Assembly (NCBI GenBank): GCA_037446725.1
Contig: JBBIIC010000005.1
Location: 5,886-69,885, forward strand
DNA: 64,000 nucleotides
Reading direction: 5' to 3'
DNA from: Actinomycetota bacterium
GTDB taxonomy: Bacteria > Actinomycetota > Coriobacteriia > Anaerosomatales > SLCP01
Position 1 is the first letter of the stretch. Every line of letters starts with the position of its first letter. Both the position numbers and the translations under genes were made by a program. Below, piece after piece: positions 6,048 to 18,077 of this stretch. The notes beneath the pieces were generated by a model that was given only the letters and a program-made list of their open reading frames with translations, was not told the origin of the DNA and made no database searches.

Positions 6048-7022
6048 CTACGTCTCGAGCAGGCCGTCCACCCTACCCCCGGCCGCGTCGGCCGCTCCTC
6101 TGATCTCAGCGAGGATCTCCCGCGCTCCCATGCCGAGCAACGCGTCGACCATGCGCATACCGAGCATCGCGGGATGCCCGGCCGGGCCGTCGAGACGGTG
6201 GCGCAGGATGCGGTCGCCCGCGACCGAACCGACCAGTCCGTCCATGACGAGCACGCCGTCCTCGAGCCTGGCGTACGCGCCGATCGGCACCTGGCAACCG
6301 CCCTCGAGCTGGCGCATGACGACGCGCTCGCCGAGCACGCTGGCGAAGGTATCGGCGTGGTTGAGCTCCTCACAGACATCGGCCATGAACGGGTCGTCGT
6401 CCCGTATCTCCACGCCGATGGCGCCCTGGCCGACGGCCGGTACCATCTGGTCGGGCGAGATGTAGTGGGTGATGCGGTCGGCCCAGCCCATGCGGGTGAT
6501 GCCGGCGCTCGCGAGGATGACAGCGTCGACCTCACCCTCCTCGGCCTTGCGCATCCGCGTGTCGAGGTTCCCGCGCACGTCGGCGATCTCGAGGTCGGGC
6601 CTGAGCGCGAGCACCTGGCTTCGCCGACGCAGGCTGCTTGTGCCGAGACGCGCGCCTTGCGGCAGGGTGTCCAGGTCGTAGCCGGCACCCGAGACGATGA
6701 CGTCGCGCGGGTCGACGCGCTCGGGCGTGGCCGCGATGCGGCAGCCCTCGGGAAGCTCGGTCGGGACATCCTTCATCGAGTGGACCGCGAGATCGACGGT
6801 GCCTGCGAGCAGCTCGACCTCGATCTCCTTGGTGAAAAGTCCCTTGCCGCCGACCTTGGCGAGCGGCACATCGAGAATCTTGTCCCCGGTGGTCTTGATA
6901 ACCATGAGCTCGACGGGCAGACCGGTGATCTCCTCGAGCCTGTCCTTGATGTAGTTGCTCTGCCACAGGGCGAGCTTGCTGCCCCGGGTCCCGATCGTGA
7001 GCTTATCGCGGCTAGCAGCCAA
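6048..7022 (-). CDS. hemC: Hydroxymethylbilane synthase (porphobilinogen deaminase)
   Basis: LTIGTRGSKLALWQS..., SLRRRSQ and GGCQVPIG (cofactor Cys) motifs. There is no ATG/GTG after the hemA stop. The best start is TTG 7022 (GGGAGA 5 nt upstream), which overlaps the hemA stop. The track ORF to 7526 is an upstream artefact. Confidence 0.9.
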   Translation of the reverse strand: MAASRDKLTIGTRGSKLALWQSNYIKDRLEEITGLPVELMVIKTTGDKILDVPLAKVGGKGLFTKEIEVELLAGTVDLAVHSMKDVPTELPEGCRIAATPERVDPRDVIVSGAGYDLDTLPQGARLGTSSLRRRSQVLALRPDLEIADVRGNLDTRMRKAEEGEVDAVILASAGITRMGWADRITHYISPDQMVPAVGQGAIGVEIRDDDPFMADVCEELNHADTFASVLGERVVMRQLEGGCQVPIGAYARLEDGVLVMDGLVGSVAGDRILRHRLDGPAGHPAMLGMRMVDALLGMGAREILAEIRGAADAAGGRVDGLLET

Positions 7023-8400
7023 TCGTGTCTCCCATCTCAGTCTGCGTCGTGGTGTCTGCTGCCCGCTCCGCCGACTTCTCCCCGCGCCCGAACAGCGACC
7101 GTATGAGGCCGAAGTGCGGGCTCCTGCCTTCGGGATTCGCGTCGAGACCATACAAGTAACGCGCGGTCTCGACGTAGGCGTAGCCGTCCTTCTCGCCCGC
7201 GACTTGCTTGAGGCGGGCCGTGGGGCCGTGTAGCATCTTGTTGACGATCGACTGCGTGAGCACCTCGACCGTCTGGAGTTCCTTCTCAGACAGGCTGCCG
7301 AGCCGCTTGAGGGCCTTCTCGAGCTCGGCCGAGCGTACCTGTTCGGCCTTGGCACGGATAGCGGCGACCGTGGGCACGACCTCCATCGACTCGATCCAGC
7401 GTTCGAACGCGACCATCTCCTCGGCGATGATCGTCTCCGCCCGGCGCGCCTCGCGCATCCGCTCCTCGAGGTTCGACTCGACGACTCCGTTGAGGTCGTC
7501 GATGTCGTAGAGGAACACGTCTGCAAGCTCGTTGACGGCCGGGTCGATATCGCGCGGCACGGCGATGTCGATGAGGAACAGCGGGTTGCCTTTGCGGCCC
7601 TTGAGAGCGGCCGCGACCTGTTCCTTCGTGATCACGTACTGGGTGGCAGCGGTCGAGGAGATGACGATGTCGGCCCCGCGCATGCGCTCGAACAGCTCGT
7701 CGTAGCGGATAGCCAGGCCGCAGAAGCGGCAGGCGAGTTCCTCGGCACGCTCGAAGGTGCGGTTGGCGACGAGCACCGTCTTGACCCCGTTGGAGACGAG
7801 GTGTTTGGCGGTAAGCTCGCTCATCTTGCCGGCACCGAGGATCAGCACCGTGCGCCCGTCAAGGTCGTCGAAGACCTTCTTGGCCAGCTCGACCGCCGCG
7901 TAGCTGATGGACACCGCGTTCTCGCCGATGTCGGTCTCGCTGCGCACGCGCTTGCCGACCTCGAAGCTCTGGCGGAACAGCTTGTTGAAGATGCGACCTG
8001 CCGCATCGTTCGAAAACGCATGCTCGTAGGCCTCTTTGACCTGGCCGAGAATCTGGGCTTCGCCGATGACCATCGAGTCGAGGGACGCGACCACCCGGAA
8101 CAGATGCCGCACCACCGACTCGCCCTCGGAGAAGTACAGGTAGCGCACGAGCTCGTGCCGGTCCAGGTCGTGGTAGTCGGCGAGGAAGTCCACGATCGCG
8201 CCCGGGCCCTCCGAGCCGACTGCGGTGACCGCGTAAATCTCGGTGCGGTTGCAGGTGGAAAGCACCACCGCTTCGGCGACGTCGGGGGTAGAGAGGAGAA
8301 GCGCAAGCGCCTCTTCCTGCCGGTGGGCGGGGAAAGTGAGCTTCTCGCGTATCTCGACAGGAGCCGTCTTGTGGCTCAGGCCCACGAGCGTCAGGTGCAT
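7012..8400 (-). CDS. hemA: Glutamyl-tRNA reductase
   Basis: 462 aa. N-terminus MHLTLVGLSHKTAPVEIREKL, catalytic Cys context STCNRTEIY, NADPH fold ILGAGKMSE. Confidence 0.95.
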   Translation of the reverse strand: MHLTLVGLSHKTAPVEIREKLTFPAHRQEEALALLLSTPDVAEAVVLSTCNRTEIYAVTAVGSEGPGAIVDFLADYHDLDRHELVRYLYFSEGESVVRHLFRVVASLDSMVIGEAQILGQVKEAYEHAFSNDAAGRIFNKLFRQSFEVGKRVRSETDIGENAVSISYAAVELAKKVFDDLDGRTVLILGAGKMSELTAKHLVSNGVKTVLVANRTFERAEELACRFCGLAIRYDELFERMRGADIVISSTAATQYVITKEQVAAALKGRKGNPLFLIDIAVPRDIDPAVNELADVFLYDIDDLNGVVESNLEERMREARRAETIIAEEMVAFERWIESMEVVPTVAAIRAKAEQVRSAELEKALKRLGSLSEKELQTVEVLTQSIVNKMLHGPTARLKQVAGEKDGYAYVETARYLYGLDANPEGRSPHFGLIRSLFGRGEKSAERAADTTTQTEMGDTIGC

Positions 8401-8551
8401 CGCGCGATGATTCGCCTCACGAGGTAGGGGGCATAGGTACGCCCTCGCCGGAGCGGTGCGAGGTGTTCAGGCAAGCAGGCCCGGCGAGGGCGATGTGACA
8501 AGTGGAACGGCTTCGATCACGCACCTTCTGCGAGTCGCCTGAACACACGAG

Positions 8552-8581
8552 ATTCTACCACCGTTAAGGTAGTCCAATCAA
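8552..8581 (-). promoter_or_regulatory. Candidate sigma70-type promoter of the hemA operon (TTGATT-N18-TGGTAGAAT)
   Basis: Reverse strand reads TTGATTggactaccttaacggTGGTAGAAT: -35 at 8581..8576, extended -10 at 8560..8552. It sits about 150 nt upstream of the hemA ATG in a 268-nt intergenic gap. Confidence 0.4.
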
Positions 8582-8668
8582 GTTCCCGGCTGCCGGCGTG
8601 ATTCCCGACGCACCCGCCACGACCTCGTCCAACGCACCGGAAACCGCGGCTCTGGCACCCGTTGCAGG

Positions 8669-9481
8669 CTAGCCCCGGCGGGCCTTGCGAATGTCCCCGT
8701 CCACAATCCAGAAGAACACCTCAGGCAGCAGCCCCTTGAGCCGGAAGTAGAAGCGGCTCGTGGCATCGGGGATGATGTGGAACCGGCCTCGTTCGATCCC
8801 GCGTAAGACCGCGTCCGCGACCCGCGTGGGAGGGATGGACTTGATGTTGCCGCTGATGACCTCGGTCTCGTGGGGCCGCATGGCGCGTTCAGCGACAAGC
8901 GCCGGGGTCTCGGTGTCGGGGGGCAGGACCGCCGACACGACGATGCCGTGGGGACGCAGCTCGAACCTCAGCGCCTCGGTGAAACCGAGCACGGCGTACT
9001 TCGCGGCGGCGTAGCCTGTGTAGCCGTAGATACCGAGGAAGCCGGCGACCGAGGAGACGTTGACGATGTGCCCGCGGCCGCGCGCAATCATGTCAGGAGC
9101 GACGACCCGGCACGGGTTGACCACGCTCCAGTAGCCGCAGGACATGTTCGTCTCGAGGTGCTCGTAGGGCATCGTGGCAAACTCGCCGGGCAGAATCACA
9201 CCCGCGCTGTTGATGAGCAGGTCGCAGAGGAACCCCTGCCGCTTGAGTTCGTCGAAGGCGGCCTGCGTGGGCCCGATTCCGGACAGATCGGCGCTCGCCG
9301 TTAGCACGCGCTGGTCGGGCCGGAGTCGTGCCGCCTCCACGGCGGCTCGCGCCCGCTCGAGCTTTCCTGGGTCGCGTGCCACGAGCGCCACGTGGGCGCC
9401 GCGCGCGGCGAGGGCCACAGCACACGCCAGCCCGATCCCGCTGCTGCCGCCGGTGACGACCGCGTACGAACCCTCGAACAC
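8669..9481 (-). CDS. Short-chain dehydrogenase/reductase (SDR), substrate unknown
   Basis: 270 aa. Cofactor motif VTGGSSGIG and catalytic YAAAK (YxxxK). The start is 3 nt after the sirC-like stop. Confidence 0.85.
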   Translation of the reverse strand: MFEGSYAVVTGGSSGIGLACAVALAARGAHVALVARDPGKLERARAAVEAARLRPDQRVLTASADLSGIGPTQAAFDELKRQGFLCDLLINSAGVILPGEFATMPYEHLETNMSCGYWSVVNPCRVVAPDMIARGRGHIVNVSSVAGFLGIYGYTGYAAAKYAVLGFTEALRFELRPHGIVVSAVLPPDTETPALVAERAMRPHETEVISGNIKSIPPTRVADAVLRGIERGRFHIIPDATSRFYFRLKGLLPEVFFWIVDGDIRKARRG

Positions 9482-9483
9482 CT

Positions 9484-10182
9484 TCAGCCTCCGGAGCCTG
9501 CGTCAGCGCCGGAGCGGTCGACAGAGACCACGCCGCCGGGGACGAACTCACGGAAGACGTCCTCGGGATCCGGGCACACGCCCGACATCACACGGTCGTA
9601 CAGGTCGGAGGCCGCGATCGCCTCGAAGATCGGCTTGCGGACGGGTTCGCCGCCCGGCACGCGCTCGAGCACAAGGCAGCGCACCTGGCCGAGCAGGCGC
9701 ACGTAGCACTCCCACTCCTCGCCGTAGTGCTCCTCGAGCTCGCGACGGATCCGTTTGGCGACCACCGGGGCCGCACCGCCGGTCGAGATGGCGATCTGGA
9801 GCGGGCCACGCTTGACGATCGACGGCACGATGAAGTTGCAGAGCTCGGGTACGTCCACCACGTTGACGAGGCATCCCTGACCCTCGGCTTCCTGGTAGAC
9901 GGCCCGGTTGACCTCGGTCGAATCGGTCGCGCACACGACGACGAACGCCCCGGCGAGATCCCCGCGCACGTAGCCCCGCTGTTCGTGCTCGATGAGTCCC
10001 TGCGCGACGAGCGCGTCGATGCCCGGCGTGACGAGCGGGGCGACGCACACGACGTCGGCACCGTACTCGAGTAGGGTCGAGATCTTGCGCTCGGCGACCG
10101 AGCCTCCGCCGACCACCACGGCCAGTCGCCCATGCAGATCGAGGAAGACCGGGTAGTAGGGGCTGGAGTACGAGTCGGTCAT
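9484..10182 (-). CDS. sirC: Precorrin-2 dehydrogenase / sirohydrochlorin ferrochelatase (CysG N-terminal / SirC / Met8-like)
   Basis: Start moved to ATG 10182 (MTDSYSSPYYPVFLDLHGRLAVVVGGGSVAERK). Rossmann GGGxxA motif and the conserved NVVD and ISTGG segments are present. Confidence 0.85.
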   Translation of the reverse strand: MTDSYSSPYYPVFLDLHGRLAVVVGGGSVAERKISTLLEYGADVVCVAPLVTPGIDALVAQGLIEHEQRGYVRGDLAGAFVVVCATDSTEVNRAVYQEAEGQGCLVNVVDVPELCNFIVPSIVKRGPLQIAISTGGAAPVVAKRIRRELEEHYGEEWECYVRLLGQVRCLVLERVPGGEPVRKPIFEAIAASDLYDRVMSGVCPDPEDVFREFVPGGVVSVDRSGADAGSGG

Positions 10183-10189
10183 CCGCCGA

Positions 10190-11029
10190 TCACAGCCCGA
10201 AGACGTGGAAGCCGGTCGGCAGCGTGCGCGCGAGAACGGCGAGCACGATGACCGCCACCAGGCCCACCAGGGCCAGCCGCGCGAGCACGGTGGCCGATGC
10301 GTTCCTGCGGTAGTACAACAACAGATAGCTGCCGAAGATGAACCACACAACGCCCGACATCATGACCCGGGGGTCGAACCACCAGTTAAGGTCGAACTCG
10401 ATGGCTCGCACGATGCCGAGCAGCATGCCCGCTGTGTAGAGCGGGTAGGCGAGCATGATGGCGCGCCGCGCGATCATCTGGGTCTGGGTGAGCGAAGGCA
10501 GCCGCTTCATGAGCGCTGAGGATTTGTGCTTCTTGAGCTGCGCACCCTGGATGAGGTAGACGCCCGAGGCGACCGCACCCACGGCGAATCCCGCGTTCGC
10601 GATCATGATGATGGCGACGTGCATCGCCACACGCCAGCTGTCGAGCTGCTCGAGCGCCGCCGAACTCAGCTCGAAGCTCTCGGAATCCGCGAGAATCTGG
10701 CCGAGTGCCATCGCGACGAACGCCAGAGGCACGAGCACGATCCCGTAGAGCTTCAGCTTCACGAGGTGCTCGACGATGAAGTAGATGAGGATGAGCGTCC
10801 AGGCTGCGAGAGAGAGCGAGTTGAACGGACCGGTGATCGGCGTCTCTCCTGTGGCGGCCCAGTGCAGCCCGATCGACGCGGTATGCAGCAGGAATCCGGC
10901 GCCGGTGGCAAACGTCGCGTACCACGAGAAAACCGGACGTTTCGTGACGAAGTTGTATGCGTACAGTACGGTCGCGACGAGGTAGAGCGCCATCGCGAAC
11001 CAGTAACAGACGATCGCTGCCTGCTCCAC
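10190..11029 (-). CDS. Cytochrome c assembly family membrane protein (HemX/CcsA-like)
   Basis: 279 aa, polytopic, with Trp-rich segment LNWWFDPRVMMSG. Size and heme-operon context resemble Bacillus HemX. Distinct from the ccmC encoded upstream. Confidence 0.72.
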   Translation of the reverse strand: MEQAAIVCYWFAMALYLVATVLYAYNFVTKRPVFSWYATFATGAGFLLHTASIGLHWAATGETPITGPFNSLSLAAWTLILIYFIVEHLVKLKLYGIVLVPLAFVAMALGQILADSESFELSSAALEQLDSWRVAMHVAIIMIANAGFAVGAVASGVYLIQGAQLKKHKSSALMKRLPSLTQTQMIARRAIMLAYPLYTAGMLLGIVRAIEFDLNWWFDPRVMMSGVVWFIFGSYLLLYYRRNASATVLARLALVGLVAVIVLAVLARTLPTGFHVFGL

Positions 11030-11081
11030 TCTCTACCCCCTCTCGCCTTGTCGGCGGCTCCTGACCGTGCCTGCCGTCACC

Positions 11082-11270
11082 CTACGCGCCGGCGTTGCGG
11101 CGCTCGAGCGCCTCTTCGAGCACGATCATCTCTTTCTCGATGCGCCCCACACGACTGTATGCCATGCCGATGTAGACGACCAGCGCAAGCCAGAGCAGGG
11201 CGTAGGCGCCGGCGACGTACGGGAGCGACGGGACGACGAGCGCGTAGATCTCAGCAAGTACCGGGTCCAT
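11082..11270 (-). CDS. ccmD: Small single-TM protein in the CcmD position (heme exporter protein D-like)
   Basis: Start moved to ATG 11270, with AAGGAGG 6 nt upstream, 20 nt after the ccmC stop. 62 aa with one TM helix (PYVAGAYALLWLALVVYIGMAY). High GC3. Assigned mainly by position and size. Confidence 0.55.
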   Translation of the reverse strand: MDPVLAEIYALVVPSLPYVAGAYALLWLALVVYIGMAYSRVGRIEKEMIVLEEALERRNAGA

Positions 11271-11289: not shown

Positions 11290-12006
11290 TCAGCCCTCGA
11301 GTGAGGCCTTGAGGGCCTCGAGGCGGTCGTGAACGAGCTCCTCGCGCATGCGCGTTTGGAAGATGGCATAGGCGATCATGAGCATTCCGAACATCCCGAT
11401 CAGGAACGCAGCGAGCTGCGAGCCCGTGAGCCCGCCGCCGGCCCTCAGCACAACGGGATGGACCGACGACGGGATGATGCGCGTGATCGCGAACGAGATC
11501 GGCGCATCGATGAACGCGATGATGCCGAAGACTGCGGCGTAGGTCGCACGGCGCTCCTCGTCCTCGATCGAGTTGCGTAGCACGAAGTAGGCGATGACGA
11601 GCAGCGTCATGATGAAGTACGTGGTCAGCCTCGGCTCCCAGACCCACCAGCGGCCCCATTCGAAGCGGGTCCACAGGATACCCGTCGCCATCGTCATGAT
11701 GACGAACAGGAGCGTCACCTCGGTCGCGATGCGCGCCCGCGTGTCGTACTGCTTGTCCTTGGTCATCAGGAAGCGCACACCGTAGTAGGCGGTGAAGAAG
11801 AACACGAGGAAGCTCGAGATGGCGACCGGCACGTGGAAGTAGAATATCTTCTGGGAGAAGAGCGGCTGATAGCCGAGTATCCGGCCCGCCTCGTTCGTGA
11901 TGGCGGGGCCGAGCACCGGCGGGGTGAAGAAGAAGGCCATGATGAATCCGGCCGTGGTCAACAGACCGCCGAGCACCAGCAGGACCGGTACGAGGTACTT
12001 TTTCAC
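11290..12006 (-). CDS. ccmC: Heme exporter protein C
   Basis: 238 aa with WWD motif WGRWWVWEPRLTT. Polytopic. Confidence 0.9.
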   Translation of the reverse strand: MKKYLVPVLLVLGGLLTTAGFIMAFFFTPPVLGPAITNEAGRILGYQPLFSQKIFYFHVPVAISSFLVFFFTAYYGVRFLMTKDKQYDTRARIATEVTLLFVIMTMATGILWTRFEWGRWWVWEPRLTTYFIMTLLVIAYFVLRNSIEDEERRATYAAVFGIIAFIDAPISFAITRIIPSSVHPVVLRAGGGLTGSQLAAFLIGMFGMLMIAYAIFQTRMREELVHDRLEALKASLEG

Positions 12007-12047: not shown

Positions 12048-12761
12048 CTACGCTCCGACGATGAACTCGTAGAGCGCGAAGGACGCCAGCAGCATTATCG
12101 CATCGAACGCGGCCATCATGCCCATGCCCGTCCAGAACTGCTGGACGGACCCATCTCCGCCGAGGATGGCGGCGCTCGTTGCCGAGACTGCCGCGAGCAA
12201 GAGCGGGTACATGAGCGGGACGAACAGGACGGCGAGCACGAAGTCCTTGCCCTTAGTGTTCACGGACATAGTGGCGAGCAGCGTACCCACCCCCGCGATG
12301 CCCACTGCACCGGCGATCAGTGCGAGCGGGATCATCCACCACTCGCCGGCATAGCTGCCTTCCTGCAGGAAGAGGAAGGCGAACACCGGGATGGTAAGCA
12401 CCTGGACGATGAGCAGGAAGATCAGATTGCCGACGGCCTTCGAGAAGAAGATCACCGGCCGGTCGACCGGGGAGAGCAGCAGCGCCTCGAGGCAGCCCTG
12501 GTCCTTTTCGTGCACGAGCGAGCGGTTCAGGCCGAGCATCGACGTGAAGACGAACGCGAGCCACAGCAGGCCGGCGGCTATGTTGCGAGGATCGAACGCA
12601 CTGCCCGACTGGGAGAGGGCGACCTGGTAGATGACCATTGTGAGCAGCGCGTAGATGCCCATCGAGGTGATCATCTCCTTGGTGCGCAGCTCCATGACGA
12701 TGTCCTTGCGAAGGATCGCCCTGAACTGCCTCAAACTCAGCCCCGTCGCCTCGCCAGCCAC
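12048..12761 (-). CDS. ccmB: Heme exporter permease CcmB
   Basis: 237 aa, about 6 TM. CcmB-like N-terminus (FRAILRKDIVMELRTKE). Abuts the ccmA stop. Confidence 0.88.
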   Translation of the reverse strand: MAGEATGLSLRQFRAILRKDIVMELRTKEMITSMGIYALLTMVIYQVALSQSGSAFDPRNIAAGLLWLAFVFTSMLGLNRSLVHEKDQGCLEALLLSPVDRPVIFFSKAVGNLIFLLIVQVLTIPVFAFLFLQEGSYAGEWWMIPLALIAGAVGIAGVGTLLATMSVNTKGKDFVLAVLFVPLMYPLLLAAVSATSAAILGGDGSVQQFWTGMGMMAAFDAIMLLASFALYEFIVGA

Positions 12762-13499
12762 CTATGCCACCCCCAGCCCCACGGTCGCTCGGTAGGTCGC
12801 GGCGAACTCGGTCTCGTCAATCTCCGCGCGCGGCGCCGAGAGCACCACCTTGCCCCTCGCGAGGATCAGCGCGTGGCTGCACAGTGTCAGCCCCTTCGTG
12901 AGGTCGTGGCTGATCATGACGAACGTGTGGTCTGCGCGGATCTGAGCGATAAGGTTATCGAGTATCTCGACCGCATGCGGGTCGAGGCCCGAGTACGGCT
13001 CGTCGAGGAAGAGCACCTGCGGGCGGTGCAACAGCGCCCGCGCGATCGAGAGGCGCTGCAGCATGCCGCGCGAGAACGTGCGCACGAGATCGAGGCGACG
13101 ATGGTCGAGCTCGACCGCGGACAGCAGCTCGCGAACGCGCGCCTTCGCGTCGGGGACCCCGTACATGTCCGCGAAGAACTCGAGGTTCTCCTCGGCCGAG
13201 AGGTCGGGATAGAGGAGCGGGTTATGGCTGATGAGCCCGATGCGGCTGCGCAGTTCGACCGCGTCGGCGACGACGTTAAACCCGCTCACCTTCGCGGTGC
13301 CCCTCGAGGGCGCGGTAAGCGTGGTGAGCACCTTGACGAGCGTCGTCTTGCCCGCGCCGTTGGGGCCGAAGATCGAGAGGAACGCCCCGGCCGGCAGGTC
13401 GAAACTGACCCCGTCAAGCGCCTTGCGCACGCCGAAGACCCGGGTCAGGTCCCGGACTTCGACGGCGAACTCATTGGAAGTGGCCTCGGCCATCGACAA
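12762..13499 (-). CDS. ccmA: Heme exporter ABC ATPase CcmA
   Basis: 245 aa. Walker A GPNGAGKTT, signature FSRGMLQRLSIA, Walker B VLFLDEP. Confidence 0.9.
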   Translation of the reverse strand: MSMAEATSNEFAVEVRDLTRVFGVRKALDGVSFDLPAGAFLSIFGPNGAGKTTLVKVLTTLTAPSRGTAKVSGFNVVADAVELRSRIGLISHNPLLYPDLSAEENLEFFADMYGVPDAKARVRELLSAVELDHRRLDLVRTFSRGMLQRLSIARALLHRPQVLFLDEPYSGLDPHAVEILDNLIAQIRADHTFVMISHDLTKGLTLCSHALILARGKVVLSAPRAEIDETEFAATYRATVGLGVA

Positions 13500-13503
13500 G
13501 CCG

Positions 13504-15567
13504 TCAGGCCGCTGCGGGGAGCTTGCGTCGCGGCCACATCGCGATGCTGGTTCCGATGATCGTCACGCCGAACCCGAACCACACCCAGCTGATGAGCGGA
13601 TTGATCTTCACGTTCATCTGGATCTCGCCCGCCTCGTTGAAGCCCTCGAAGACCACGAAGACGTCGCGAAGTAGCTCGACGATAACGTACACGTGAAGTC
13701 GTGTCTGGTCCTGCTTGAAGTAGCGGACCTGGCCGGGCGCAGCCGTGCCGACGGGGCGCCCATCCCGGGAGACATCGAAGTGCAGCGTGCTGACCACATC
13801 GTTATTGGGCAGCGTCCGCTCCTCCGAGCCGGTGAAGACGAAGTCATAACCGCCGACCTCGAACTCGGCGCCGGGTTCGGACGGGATGCTGATGCGTACG
13901 TCCTTCACGAACATGGATGACCCGACGAGACCGATGACGATAATCCCCATGCCGAGGTGCGTCAGGTAGCCGCCCGACTGGGTGCGGGCCTTGAAGATGA
14001 GATTGCCGAGTGCCTTGAAGAAGCCTTCCTCCTTGGCAAGAGCCCGCCTCTGGGCACCCACGATGAACAGGTAAACGGAAACGGTGATGGCCAGCGCGCC
14101 GACAGCGAACCCGATCAGGGCCTCCCACGTGTGGGTCACCGAGGTCAGCACGTTCGCGTTCGGGTTCGAGAACAGATGGATGGGCCAGAGCACGGTCCAC
14201 CACAGGTACGCCAGTGCCGCGGTGACGGCGCCCGCGGCGATCAGTGGCCACTTGATTTTCGGCCAGAACACCGAACCGTCGGTCTTGCGCCACGCGAGCA
14301 GCGGGCACACCGCCATGATGAAGACGTACAGGATGCCAACCGGCCGCGCGATGGCGTCGTACGTGGCCGGCCCGTACGTCTTTCCGCCGAACGCGGGCGA
14401 GAGAGTCAGCGCAGCGATCACGACAGCCGCGACGAGCATGAGCACGTTATTGAAGTAGTACGAGGACTCCTTCGAGGTCAGGCTGTCGAACTCGTCGGCG
14501 CCCTTGAACGACTCGCTGCGGTAGGTGATGCCCACGAGACCGACGAGCATCGAGCCCACCATCATGGCGAGGAACCACCAGAACGACAACTCATCCTGCT
14601 GGAACGCATGGACCGACTGGACGACACCCGAGCGGACGATGAACGTACCAAGGAGCACCCCGACAAAGCAGATGACCGAGAGCATGACGGCCCATTTCTT
14701 GAAACCGCCGCGTCGCCGGTACACGGTGAACGAGTGAAGCAGGGCGACACCCGTCAGCCACGGGATGAACGAAGCATTCTCGACCGGGTCCCAGGCCCAG
14801 TATCCACCCCATCCGAGCACGACGTAGGCCCAGACGGCACCGAGTCCGTTGCCAAGACCCAGGAAGAGCCAGGCGAACACGGTGATGCGGTCGACGATCT
14901 CGACCCAGAGCTTGGAGGAGTCATTGACGATGAGCGCGCCGATCGCGAAAGCGAAGGGAACGGCGAAACCCGCGTAGCCCACGAAGAGCGTGGGTGGGTG
15001 CAGTGTCATCGCCCAGTGCTGGAGCAGAGGGTTCATGCCTCCGCGGATGAGCAACTCACCACCGGGGCCGATCCAGGACTCGGGGGACAGCTTGAACGGG
15101 TTGTTGAGCGGGATGAACAGTGCGACCAGGAAGAACACCTGCACGAAGTTGAGTACCGCGAGCGACATGTTGGAGACTTCGTCGGTGACCGACATGCGCT
15201 TGTAGGCAACATAGGCCGCGAACATCGACAGCAGCCAGGCCCAGAAGAGGAGCGAGCCCTCTCTTCCCGCCCACACGGCGGCGAGCTTGTAGACCCACGC
15301 GAGCGCCGAGACGTCGGTGGAGTGGTGCATCGCGACGTACTCGAGCCGGAAATCCTCGCTGACGAAAGCCGCAGTCAGGACCGCGATGCTCGAGGTGACG
15401 CCGACAAGCACGCCATACGTAGCGAGGTAGCCGATGTTGGTGAGGCCCTCGCCTTCCTTGGCGCCCATCTTGCGGCCCCACACGAGCGCGGCAATCGAGA
15501 CGAACGCCGCAACGAGAGCAACACCCATGAACAGGTTGCCGAGATTGGCCATGCGCTTCCACTCCAC
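13504..15567 (-). CDS. ccmF: Cytochrome c-type biogenesis heme lyase CcmF
   Basis: 687 aa, polytopic. WWD motif GGYWAWDPVENASFIPWL. Confidence 0.92.
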   Translation of the reverse strand: MEWKRMANLGNLFMGVALVAAFVSIAALVWGRKMGAKEGEGLTNIGYLATYGVLVGVTSSIAVLTAAFVSEDFRLEYVAMHHSTDVSALAWVYKLAAVWAGREGSLLFWAWLLSMFAAYVAYKRMSVTDEVSNMSLAVLNFVQVFFLVALFIPLNNPFKLSPESWIGPGGELLIRGGMNPLLQHWAMTLHPPTLFVGYAGFAVPFAFAIGALIVNDSSKLWVEIVDRITVFAWLFLGLGNGLGAVWAYVVLGWGGYWAWDPVENASFIPWLTGVALLHSFTVYRRRGGFKKWAVMLSVICFVGVLLGTFIVRSGVVQSVHAFQQDELSFWWFLAMMVGSMLVGLVGITYRSESFKGADEFDSLTSKESSYYFNNVLMLVAAVVIAALTLSPAFGGKTYGPATYDAIARPVGILYVFIMAVCPLLAWRKTDGSVFWPKIKWPLIAAGAVTAALAYLWWTVLWPIHLFSNPNANVLTSVTHTWEALIGFAVGALAITVSVYLFIVGAQRRALAKEEGFFKALGNLIFKARTQSGGYLTHLGMGIIVIGLVGSSMFVKDVRISIPSEPGAEFEVGGYDFVFTGSEERTLPNNDVVSTLHFDVSRDGRPVGTAAPGQVRYFKQDQTRLHVYVIVELLRDVFVVFEGFNEAGEIQMNVKINPLISWVWFGFGVTIIGTSIAMWPRRKLPAAA

Positions 15568-15643
15568 TTCCGCCCTGCCTCACGGGCGCGCCCGGGGCAC
15601 TTGCAGGTCGAAGGCGCCCCGGAGGGGGCGCCCCTTCACTCGC

Positions 15644-16321
15644 TTACTGCTCGGTATCGGAGAGCGAGACGCTCACGGCATCGAAGACGCCCTGCTCGTC
15701 GAGGAGGCCGCCGAGAACGACCTGGGAACCGTCGGCCATGCCTTCTGGCAGGGCTCCGTCGTAGAACACGTTCACCGAGGGGCTTCCGCCCTCGTCGGTG
15801 ATCACGAAGCGGGTCGCGCCGCCCGGCGGCACGATGGAGCCGCTCGCCACGAAGCCGGTCACACGAACCGACTTGCCGATGACCCCGTCGCCCTCGGCGA
15901 GCAGGTCGGCGATGGTGAGCGCGCCGGTCGCGGACTCATACTTGGACGGGCACTTGGTGATCATGTCCTCGGACTCGAGCACGCCGTCGGAGTTGACTGT
16001 GCCCGTGATGATGGCCGTGACCTCGTCGCCGAAGGTGCTCGGCACGCCGCCGTAGTAGACGACCGAGATCTGCGGCCCTTCGGTCGCACCCTCGTCACGG
16101 ATGTCGAACTTCATCGGGCTCGACTTCTTGTCCCAGGACCCCGGGACGACGGTACCCGTCACGCGGACGCGCTCGCCGGCGGCCTCCGGGTCCCCGACAA
16201 CGTCGCTGACGCTGCGGGAGTATGAGCCGTCCCCGGCGCCTACGCCCACGACGATGGCGACGACGGAGATCAGGATGATGGCGGTCACACCGATGAGGCG
16301 CATCCTGGCCCGTTTGTTCAC
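15644..16321 (-). CDS. ccmE: Cytochrome c maturation heme chaperone CcmE, CxxxY variant, with a second tandem CcmE-like OB domain
   Basis: Start set to GTG 16321 (AAAGGAG 8 nt upstream), giving (M)NKRARMRLIGVTAIILISVV, a typical CcmE N-terminus plus TM anchor. CPSKY at 15938..15952 replaces the canonical HxxxY. Residues ~133-225 repeat the first OB domain (RVRVTG..., F.I.DEG, V.Y.G..P). Confidence 0.85.
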   Translation of the reverse strand: MNKRARMRLIGVTAIILISVVAIVVGVGAGDGSYSRSVSDVVGDPEAAGERVRVTGTVVPGSWDKKSSPMKFDIRDEGATEGPQISVVYYGGVPSTFGDEVTAIITGTVNSDGVLESEDMITKCPSKYESATGALTIADLLAEGDGVIGKSVRVTGFVASGSIVPPGGATRFVITDEGGSPSVNVFYDGALPEGMADGSQVVLGGLLDEQGVFDAVSVSLSDTEQ

Positions 16322-16447
16322 ATACACCACTCCTTTGCCCGAGGGCGCCGCTCGGGGCCCACTCCCGCCTTCACCGGGCATGCTCGCACCGGTATCCGGA
16401 CGTGGGAGTACACCGCTCCGAACGTCTGCCTGCCTGAACAGCCATTA

Positions 16448-16524: not shown

Positions 16525-17466
16525 CTAGTTGATCGCCGGGTTCGCCGTTTCCTGCCGGACCTCACGCCCGCCTTCGCGCTGCAGCCACTGGACGTCGGGC
16601 GCGAAGCCCACCCGATCGAGCAGGCGCAGGTACTCCGTGGCGTCGAGCTCTCCCGGTGCCCCCGCGAGCGCTACGAGCGCCGCCTCGATCACGTTCGTGC
16701 CGAACGAGCGCCCGCCGAGTCGCGGTGTCGTAGTCACGAGCAGCTCGACTCCGCGCCCGCGCATGTCCTCGACGTCGGCGGCGGTCGTGGTGTTGGTGAC
16801 GACCCACTTGCCCGACATATCCGGAGGCATGAACTTGCGGACGTACTGGTAGTCACCCGCGATCACGTCGAACTGCTCGTAGAGGCGCGCCCGCTCCGCG
16901 GACGGGGGCTTGTCCTGCTGGGAACCGGTCGGGTAAAGCCAGGTGAACGGCAGCTGTACCACCACGGGCGCGAGCACCCGGATGAGCAGGTCGAGCGAGC
17001 GCTTGCCGCGGATGAGAACGGGCACCCCAAGCGCATACAGAAGGTCACCGTATCGCAGGTCGCAACCGGTCTCGATCAACCCCTCGGCCAAGCCGTACCG
17101 ATCGACCGCCGCCGTCACGAGCGCCCGCTTGCCCGCAAGTTCCAGCCCCAGCTCGTCGCGGACGAAGCGTACCGTCGCGTGCTCGAGCGGGCCTTTGAGC
17201 GCCGCCCCGCAGACGAGAGGCGTCCGGCGGACCGCGCGGGCGAGCCTTCTGGCCGCACGGAAGTGATAGTCGTGACCGGCCGCCCGCAGGTACAGATCGA
17301 TGCCGCCGAGGCTCAGCGCATCGACCGTGCCGTCGAGCTCGGCCAGACGGGCCTCCGCCCGGTCGAAATCGCCGTCCACGCCTTCACGGCGCAGCCTGAA
17401 CCGCTCCCCGAGCAGGTCGATCTCGACCTCGTGATTCCGCGAGGACGAGCCGAGTGAGACGCTCAC
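16525..17466 (-). CDS. Conserved hypothetical protein, function unknown
   Basis: Clear coding bias. N-terminus VSLGSSSRNHEVEIDLLGERF. I recall homologues being labelled quinate 5-dehydrogenase in some genomes, but cannot support that label. Start set to GTG 17466, which forms a GTGA overlap with the upstream stop. GTG 17487 in the track sits directly on its SD. Confidence 0.7.
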   Translation of the reverse strand: MSVSLGSSSRNHEVEIDLLGERFRLRREGVDGDFDRAEARLAELDGTVDALSLGGIDLYLRAAGHDYHFRAARRLARAVRRTPLVCGAALKGPLEHATVRFVRDELGLELAGKRALVTAAVDRYGLAEGLIETGCDLRYGDLLYALGVPVLIRGKRSLDLLIRVLAPVVVQLPFTWLYPTGSQQDKPPSAERARLYEQFDVIAGDYQYVRKFMPPDMSGKWVVTNTTTAADVEDMRGRGVELLVTTTPRLGGRSFGTNVIEAALVALAGAPGELDATEYLRLLDRVGFAPDVQWLQREGGREVRQETANPAIN

Positions 17467-18077
17467 GACCTCTTTGATGGCGCCCACCTCCCCGCACGCT
17501 CGGCCGCGTCGCGCAGCGCACGGCTCACCCGCCCGGTGCGGGGGCGAGCGGTCGAACCCGCGTGCACACCCTGCAGCACCTGCTCGAGCTCGGCCACGTC
17601 GACCGTGACGTCCTCGCGAAGCGGCGAATGGCCGAGCGGGATGCCGACGACCTCCTTGCCGAGGATCCGCTCCACGAGCTCGATGCGCCAGTCGCTCGCA
17701 AGCAGGATGACGACGTCGTAATCGCGCATGGTGGCAAGCGTCTCGAGCAGACGGTTGAAGACCTCCCCGCCCGAGGCGCCCTCGATGCTCTCCCGCTCGG
17801 CCTGGTTGAAGACAAGGACGAAGTCCAGCCCGTGCTCCTCGGCAAGCGCCCTGATCTGCTCAGCGTTAGCGACGGGGAAGCCCACGAGGGCGATGCGCGC
17901 ACCACGGCGCACCTCGCCGAGCGACTCGAGGAAGGAGACGAACGAGCGCTGCACGCCGTGAGCTCGCGCGACCTCTTCTTGCGTGGCACCCGCCTCGCGG
18001 TCGGCCAGGATGTCGACGAGCGCGTCGAAGAGCTTCTCCTGGCTTATGACCTTCTCGCCGATGCGGAAGAACCTCAC
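17463..18077 (-). CDS. Putative HTH transcriptional regulator with an uncharacterised C-terminal domain
   Basis: GTG 18077 has GGAGG 7 nt upstream. 204 aa. HTH-like segment GATQEEVARAHGVQRSFVSFLE, followed by a Rossmann-like region (ARIALVGFPVAN...). Translationally coupled to the gene at 16525..17466. Confidence 0.7.
   Translation of the reverse strand: MRFFRIGEKVISQEKLFDALVDILADREAGATQEEVARAHGVQRSFVSFLESLGEVRRGARIALVGFPVANAEQIRALAEEHGLDFVLVFNQAERESIEGASGGEVFNRLLETLATMRDYDVVILLASDWRIELVERILGKEVVGIPLGHSPLREDVTVDVAELEQVLQGVHAGSTARPRTGRVSRALRDAAERAGRWAPSKRS

Follow-up and report, generated by a model that had tools for sequence, protein, structure and literature searches.

A CcmE heme chaperone with two OB-fold domains and a single CPSKY motif in Coriobacteriia

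We analysed a 64,000-nucleotide stretch of DNA (hereafter the window; contig JBBIIC010000005.1) from an uncultured, Anaerosomatales-like actinobacterium of the class Coriobacteriia, focusing on its ccmE gene (15644..16321, minus strand), which encodes a heme chaperone of the CxxxY type. In the product, a CcmE, four parts follow one another: a membrane anchor at the N-terminus, a first oligonucleotide/oligosaccharide-binding (OB) fold domain (D1), the heme-binding motif CPSKY, and a second OB-fold domain of the CcmE type (D2). Comparison with the relatives retrieved indicates that this tandem form is the standard CcmE of the class Coriobacteriia. The architecture thus extends through the lineage and, although the chaperone itself is well understood, had so far passed without remark in the literature that we searched.

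Results

Layout of the Gene and Its Product

The open reading frame (ORF) comprises 225 codons plus a stop and gives a product of 225 residues. It begins with a GTG codon at 16321, and direct reading of the sequence showed a Shine-Dalgarno-like AAGGAG (16330..16335, minus strand) separated from it by an 8-nt spacer. The start coincides with the conserved M/V-NKRAR (MNKRAR) N-terminus of all close homologues, which are 86-95 % identical and share both length and start. The membrane anchor (about residues 8-28, RLIGVTAIILISVVAIVVGVG; 16238..16300, minus strand) is a hydrophobic stretch for which AlphaFold2 (AF2) predicted a helix over residues 3-29, and R8, L9, T13, I15, and A22 are invariant in the family alignment. 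D1 (residues 35-123; 15953..16219, minus strand) lies within a Pfam CcmE match covering residues 33-130 and corresponds to the Desulfovibrio vulgaris CcmE 2kct in the PDB sequence comparison; its predicted beta strands span residues 51-58, 70-76, 84-89, 102-109, and 115-123. The heme-binding motif C124-P-S-K-Y128 (15938..15952, minus strand) is encoded by TGC CCG TCC AAG TAT at 15952..15938, inside MITKCPSKYES. These observations agree with an earlier note, drawn from the letters of this DNA, that had placed the CPSKY codons at these positions and had described a membrane anchor followed by a CcmE-like domain ending in MITKCPSKYES.

The motif is followed by an interdomain linker, E-S-A-T-G-A (residues 129-134; 15920..15937, minus strand), in which S130, A131, and A134 are conserved in at least 90 % of the family and whose continuation, E-S-A-x-x-A-L, is nearly invariant. 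The AF2 confidence over residues 121-130 (predicted local distance difference test, pLDDT, of 76) was lower than in the flanking blocks and barrels. D2 then occupies residues 135-221 (15659..15919, minus strand). The whole protein contains one Cys (C124) and no His, and therefore its second half carries no [C/H]xxxY motif, as the earlier note had also stated. Because the motif stands at the end of D1 and D2 comes after it, CPSKY sits in the linker between two domains and not in a free C-terminal tail.

The Second Half Is a CcmE Domain

The full protein scored 116.3 bits against the Pfam family PF03100 (CcmE; profile length 99) in two matching stretches, the gathering cut-off being 24.6 bits. 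Scanned separately, residues 1-130 scored 67.7 bits, and the last 95 residues alone reached 52.4 bits (E 7e-14), covering profile positions 5-89 of 99. The C-terminal half alone was also matched by the NCBIfam CcmE models (best E 1.6e-9). The NCBIfam equivalog models matched the full protein below their own full-length cut-offs (77.6 vs 152), which is expected for a divergent subclass.

The two halves were aligned with each other, a check that the earlier note had proposed. BLASTP aligned D1 with D2 over 84 residues at 29 % identity (E 2e-10), and hhalign, run on D1 and D2 family profiles built from 59 family members, matched them over 81 columns with 98.5 % probability (E 1.9e-15). This lies far beyond chance.

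Structure prediction pointed the same way. The AF2 model of the full-length protein (mean pLDDT 80, about 90 over D2) has a helix at its N-terminus and then two barrels of five strands each, and D2 modelled alone formed an OB barrel with a pLDDT of 91.7 and a predicted template modelling score (pTM) of 0.82. With this model as query, Foldseek placed the CcmE structures 8ce8 chain E (TM-score 0.70), 1sr3, 1lm0, 1j6q, and 2kct among its top matches, mixed with other OB folds, including RPA14/32 and Stn1-Ten1 complexes. In the PDB sequence comparison, D2 (query residues 148-219) aligned directly to the CcmE of Escherichia coli and Shewanella. We also considered that D2 might be a generic OB domain or belong to another family; the matches to DUF5818 and DUF4431 were sub-threshold noise, and the assignment to CcmE was preferred. 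An assembly or fusion artefact was ruled out by the recurrence of the continuous ORF in hundreds of independent assemblies. Pfam matches to both halves, BLASTP, hhalign, AF2, and Foldseek thus agree on the internally duplicated CcmE/OB domain that the earlier note had proposed, and the outcome that it had feared, a C-terminal half unlike CcmE or any OB fold, did not materialise in the predicted structure.

Residues at the Heme-Contact Positions

The heme-contact residues of E. coli CcmE, which we take to be F37, F103, L127, H130, and Y134, reportedly go back to Harvat et al. in 2009. At the position of F37, D1 is variable (Ser, Tyr, Thr, or Val) and D2 has Ala in 34/45 sequences. The position of F103 is occupied by Phe in 44/45 D1 sequences and by Val, Met, Phe, Leu, or Ile in D2 (Met195 in the clade of the window). 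At the position of L127, D1 has Val, Ile, or Leu, and D2 has Ala in 32/45 cases. Finally, the positions of H130 and Y134 are occupied in D1 by Cys (43/45) and Tyr (41/45) and have no counterpart in D2. D2 keeps the structural signature of the family, R-F in strand 2 and G-A-L-P-x-G-M-x-D-G-x-x-V-V-L-G-G, and at these presumed contact positions has Ala, Val/Met, and Ala, which are small or aliphatic, instead of bulky residues. With both the motif and the bulky residues gone, D2 seems incapable of canonical heme binding. The uniformly small residues on its former heme face suggest that this face could form a conserved surface.

Distribution of the Tandem Form

In a large protein database, the best 120 clusters at 90 % identity all contained exactly one CP[ST][KR]Y; 119 of them were 215-256 residues long and the last one was a fragment of 155 residues. 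A search of one genome per GTDB species recovered relatives in 279 stretches, the best 80 of which matched over the full tandem length. These 80 came from Coriobacteriia, Actinomycetota, or similar, bar some "uncultured Eubacteriales" records that we took as mislabelled. In a representative search, about 50 tandem clusters at 50 % identity were followed by single-domain CPSKY proteins of 125-160 residues, and the nearest single-domain relatives in the database all carried CPSKY. Altogether, 288 of the 406 retrieved relatives were tandem. CPSKY was present in 269 of these 288 proteins, [C/H]xxxY occurred in the D2 of none of them, and 243 had neither Cys nor His in D2. A search from a divergent member led to cultured gut Coriobacteriia, Adlercreutzia equolifaciens (221 residues, 102 contigs) and Raoultibacter, so that the tandem layout is kept across two orders of the class.

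The annotations that we saw read simply "CcmE" and did not record the duplication. We found no description of a two-domain or duplicated CcmE in the literature searched, which included PMC9084895, PMC4429474, PMC3884852, PMC12285233, and PMC9686372 and did not extend to the texts of Allen 2006, Goddard 2010, and Aramini 2012; domain databases may show the tandem architecture implicitly. The earlier note had treated the tandem CcmE as unusual, with the caveat that such proteins might turn out to be common and already annotated. Within the lineage the protein is not unusual, and the caveat came true by half: the tandem form is the norm in Coriobacteriia and labelled CcmE, whereas its duplication is unrecorded and the subject of no paper that we found.

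Selection on D2 and Its Origin

Pairwise ratios of nonsynonymous to synonymous substitutions (dN/dS) were 0.11-0.34 for D2 and 0.05-0.20 for D1. D2 is under purifying selection, and the word "degenerate", which the earlier note had applied to it, is misleading. D2 evolves faster than D1: at distant loci it is 31-53 % identical to that of the window, vs 50-72 % for D1.

We computed a neighbour-joining tree of 45 D1, 45 D2, and 60 single-domain cores, rooted on the E. coli sequence. All D2 sequences fell in one clade, the only other members of which were fragments. Within the CxxxY radiation, this clade adjoined the one that holds D1 and the single-domain proteins nearest to it; the internal branches were very short. 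By this tree, the tandem architecture arose once, D2 having a single origin. On the simplest reading, which we favour and do not regard as proven, the entire extracytoplasmic domain without its motif would have been duplicated internally a single time, long ago, in an ancestral lineage of the Coriobacteriia; a fusion of two ccmE genes is possible. The direct PDB matches of D2 to the E. coli and Shewanella proteins had raised the idea of a separate origin from an HxxxY-type CcmE. It was set aside given the position of D2 beside D1 in the CxxxY radiation, on those very short internal branches.

The ccm Operon and Its Surroundings

In the window, ccmE heads a contiguous minus-strand operon, ccmE-F-A-B-C. 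Immediately 3' of it lies ccmF (13504..15567; Pfam Cytochrom_C_asm and CcmF_C), encoding a heme lyase of 687 residues, which is the next gene after ccmE in 73/80 related loci. It is followed by ccmA (12762..13499; ABC ATPase, Pfam ABC_tran), ccmB (12048..12761; Pfam CcmB), and ccmC (11290..12006; Pfam Cytochrom_C_asm), whose product of 238 residues is a heme-handling protein of the WWD family. This gene order was kept in at least 47 of the 80 related loci and also in Adlercreutzia and locus L092.

After ccmC, we identified a short minus-strand ORF of 62 residues (11082..11270; MDPVLAEIYALVVPSLPYVAGAYALLWLALVVYIGM...RIEKEMIVLEEALERR) having a single hydrophobic helix and a tail that is helical and charged. 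By tblastn it was found after ccmC in 60/80 related loci, and ORFs of 63-73 residues occupy the equivalent site in Adlercreutzia and L092. Searches against Pfam and NCBIfam gave no family match and none to CcmD. It may be a divergent CcmD, for which it is a candidate by position and shape only.

Neither ccmH nor ccmG is present in the operon. No ORF of the 64-kb window carries the CcmH motif LRCxxC or CxxCH, and LRCxxC is likewise missing from the genes called in the related operons L081, L082, and L092. This absence fits the CcmH-less variant of System I, with a CxxxY-type CcmE, found in archaea and Desulfovibrio (PMC9084895, PMC3884852).

Directly 3' of the ccm operon (7012..11032, minus strand) are genes for a CcsA/HemX-like membrane protein, a protein resembling sirohaem synthase/precorrin-2 dehydrogenase, a short-chain dehydrogenase/reductase, and hemA. 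The CcsA/HemX-like protein matched Cytochrom_C_asm and scored below the cut-off of TIGR03144. With hemA and the sirohaem-synthase-like gene at this place, genes of heme synthesis and delivery are therefore clustered; the arrangement 3' of the ccm operon in L092 matches that of the window.

Immediately 5' of ccmE, two minus-strand genes with products of 320 (16525..17487) and 204 residues (17463..18077) overlap by 25 nt, the product of the latter having a weak helix-turn-helix-like N-terminus. The order of this pair is kept in 62-71 of the 80 related loci. Neither protein had a match in Pfam or a significant one in NCBIfam or among PDB sequences. A 9-bp G+C hairpin, GGGGCGCCC/GGGCGCCCC, separates the stop codon of ccmE from the start of ccmF (15612..15633, minus strand). 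Its folding energy does not surpass that of shuffled sequence (z -0.57), and it lacks a T-tract; this hairpin is probably not meaningful in a genome of 68 % G+C.

In Adlercreutzia equolifaciens (contigs L081/L082:1345-13528), the operon ccmE-F-A-B-C with its small ORF lies immediately 3' of napG-napA-napB-napD-napH and of a gene for an NrfA-type cytochrome c552; the Nap and NrfA-type proteins are likely clients of this operon. Cultured Anaerosomatales encode 17-18 multiheme cytochromes c (PMC9686372), and so a maturation system is needed there.

Deviant Relatives

Some relatives depart from the common pattern. The locus L090 combines a tandem CcmE having CPEKK with an extra gene for a membrane-anchored, single-OB, CcmE-like protein of 145 residues that has no Cys motif (L090:2826-3263 and L090:5230-5919); this extra gene comes after the homologues of the conserved upstream pair. 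Other motifs without Tyr are CPEKQ and CPSKW (P0125, P0131, P0133). Tandem relatives without the Cys were found in L083:499-1179, L084, and L085 (P0169/P0275 cluster), as well as in L086:2532-3236 (P0234). Their motif regions read INQPAEY or VPVTY, the latter in a protein with a lipoprotein-like signal. They stand alone, outside ccm operons, with a gene for a flavin oxidoreductase or for cation efflux as neighbour, and are either relics or repurposed two-OB proteins. A gene of 319 residues 5' of the Cys-less orphan P0234 was compared with the 320-residue upstream gene of the window and proved not homologous. Finally, in P0209 (149 residues, from a 3-kb ENA contig) a complete D2 directly follows the anchor and first D1 strand, the greater part of D1 being absent along with CPSKY; P0209 is a deletion pseudogene or else a protein consisting of D2 only.

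Discussion

Comparison With Known CcmE Proteins

Four features by which a CcmE is recognised are found in the window protein: the PF03100 score, an anchor followed by an OB barrel, [H/C]xxxY after the last barrel strand, and ccmF and ccmABC as neighbours. The motif follows the last strand of D1 and is lacking after that of D2. The protein shares with the CxxxY-type CcmEs of Desulfovibrio vulgaris/desulfuricans (PDB 2kct) and Methanosarcina acetivorans an N-terminal anchor and an OB fold directly followed by Cys-x-x-x-Tyr, and with the variant System I to which they belong an operon that has ccmF and ccmABC but neither ccmH nor ccmG. The CcmH-less System I with a CxxxY CcmE is reportedly the type of Allen et al. 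in 2006. The window protein also has the Cys in place of His that marks this variant but differs in its number of domains and in the setting of its motif. The known CxxxY-type CcmEs are single-domain proteins of about 125-160 residues whose motif is borne on a C-terminal tail that is free and unstructured, whereas in the window CcmE a second OB domain of 90 residues comes after the motif, which is tethered at both ends and followed by the conserved ESAxxAL. The earlier note had supposed that CxxxY proteins have a single domain. This is the case for the characterised ones, Desulfovibrio 2kct and Methanosarcina (PMC9084895), as well as for the CPSKY relatives of 125-160 residues reported above. 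The second OB domain after the motif is what sets the window CcmE apart from the characterised CxxxY members.

The canonical HxxxY CcmEs of E. coli and Shewanella (1sr3, 1lm0/1j6q, 8ce8 chain E) belong likewise to PF03100, share the OB barrel, and match the D2 model with TM-scores, normalised to the query, of 0.57-0.70. In these systems CcmE shuttles heme from CcmC to CcmF, and by analogy the same role would be expected for the window CcmE. The latter differs from them in its Cys instead of the covalently binding His and in its two domains, and its operon lacks their partner genes for CcmH and CcmG. D2 in particular has neither their motif nor bulky residues at what we take to be the F37, F103, and L127 positions. 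In the Foldseek search with the whole model, the matches included proteins with two consecutive OB barrels, e.g., HIN-200 domains and Teb1/RPA. This likeness is topological only (TM-score about 0.3, root mean square deviation 13-14 angstrom, 12-18 % identity); those proteins are nucleic-acid binders with no sequence homology or functional relation to the window CcmE.

What the Second Domain Might Do

We consider it fairly probable that the ccmE of the window encodes a functional heme chaperone of a variant System I, in which D2 would be an accessory module next to the heme-bearing linker, covering or positioning the heme or fixing the geometry of its handover. Homology and gene context suggest that the protein would bind heme covalently and transfer it by way of CcmF. 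Heme coming from CcmC/CcmAB would be bound through Cys124, with Tyr128 as a ligand of the iron, by analogy with C120 of Methanosarcina and with the Desulfovibrio CcmE, and would then be handed from CcmE to CcmF for attachment to apocytochromes. The equivalent Cys (C120) is required for heme attachment in the Methanosarcina protein (PMC9084895), and the Desulfovibrio CcmE offers an analogue for Cys-based heme binding (PMC9084895, PMC3884852). D2 would bind no heme on its own and could act as a lid or spacer over the heme held by the linker, or set the geometry of the handover to CcmC/CcmF. We are highly confident of this explanation apart from its last element; that D2 shields or positions the heme is a tentative proposal, which may well prove wrong.

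Several observations speak against this proposal. Single-domain relatives within the D1 clade stand directly 5' of ccmF (P0197 in L088, P0185 in L089), which means that a Ccm system can do without D2. A few of the tandem proteins have no Tyr (CPEKK, CPEKQ, CPSKW) or no Cys, and the motif is thus more plastic than a simple model assumes. The pTM of the full-length AF2 model was only 0.57, so the packing of D1 and D2 around the motif is predicted at low overall confidence. Lastly, single-domain CxxxY CcmEs work in other single-membrane organisms, e.g., in archaea, so that exposure of the heme is by itself no reason for a lid.

Alternatively, D2 might be a docking or adaptor module on the periplasmic face of CcmF (or for CcmC or an apocytochrome), replacing functions of the proteobacterial CcmH/CcmI, which we regard as rather unlikely. 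The absence of ccmH and ccmG from the operon, the conservation of D2 under purifying selection, the adjacency of ccmE and ccmF in most of the related loci, and the frequent use of OB folds as protein- or peptide-binding modules (cf. the RPA14/32 and Stn1-Ten1 matches of D2) would all suit such a role. However, single-domain CxxxY CcmEs work without CcmH and CcmG in Desulfovibrio and Methanosarcina (PMC9084895), and a missing CcmH thus needs no extra domain; the single-domain relatives located directly 5' of ccmF count against docking as well. The earlier note had suggested that the second domain offers CcmF a docking surface where CcmH is missing, a link weakened by the same examples, D. desulfuricans and the Methanosarcina CcmABCEF (PMC9084895). 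For its other suggestion, that the tandem mimics a dimer, we know of no evidence in support. The CcmABCDE complex 8ce8 presumably contains one CcmE.

In a bolder version of the lid, heme on the interdomain CPSKY loop would be shut in between both OB domains as in a clamshell, making CcmE an enclosed carrier instead of an open platform whose tail is loose; in our opinion, this is slightly less probable than docking. If it were true, the small residues at the former heme-contact positions of D2 (Ala, Val/Met, Ala) would provide the pocket around the heme with its second wall, and the handover at CcmC/CcmF would proceed through a looped motif tethered at both ends, a geometry outside the current models of CcmC/CcmE and CcmF.

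It is very improbable that D2 is a second, non-covalent heme site and that the protein carries or buffers two hemes, as would suit organisms making many multiheme cytochromes. The hosts do encode many such cytochromes, and D2 retains the core pattern of CcmE (G-x-L-P-x-G-hydrophobic ... G) and, where E. coli has F103, a hydrophobic residue, Met195 in the clade of the window. Yet this residue varies across the class (V, M, F, L, I), two of the three bulky platform residues have been replaced by Ala, and the D2 of the 288 tandem relatives is devoid of [C/H]xxxY in every case and of Cys and His in 243. Least probable of all, and effectively refuted given the conservation and the dN/dS of D2, is a functionless relic of duplication, or an assembly or frameshift artefact joining two genes: D2 does evolve faster than D1, has lost the heme motif, and is missing in some relatives, but its ORF is continuous in 288 independently assembled sequences (one of them on 102 contigs named for a cultured species), its dN/dS is well below 1, the architecture is retained across two orders, and AF2 predicts a well-folded domain (pLDDT 92).

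Implications

Textbook models place the heme-binding residue of CcmE on a flexible C-terminal tail that reaches CcmC and CcmF, whereas Coriobacteriia place it between two OB domains. Members of the class having this tandem CcmE include iron reducers of the subsurface as well as human-gut bacteria of the Eggerthellaceae type, which mature NrfA, Nap, and multiheme reductases. If D2 is only a stabilising appendage, the finding would still serve annotation, since the "CcmE" of about 225 residues in Coriobacteriia has two domains and one active site. Should D2 instead give the heme pocket its form or govern how heme is handed over, the tandem CcmE would be a natural experiment on how CcmE shields heme and releases it to CcmF.

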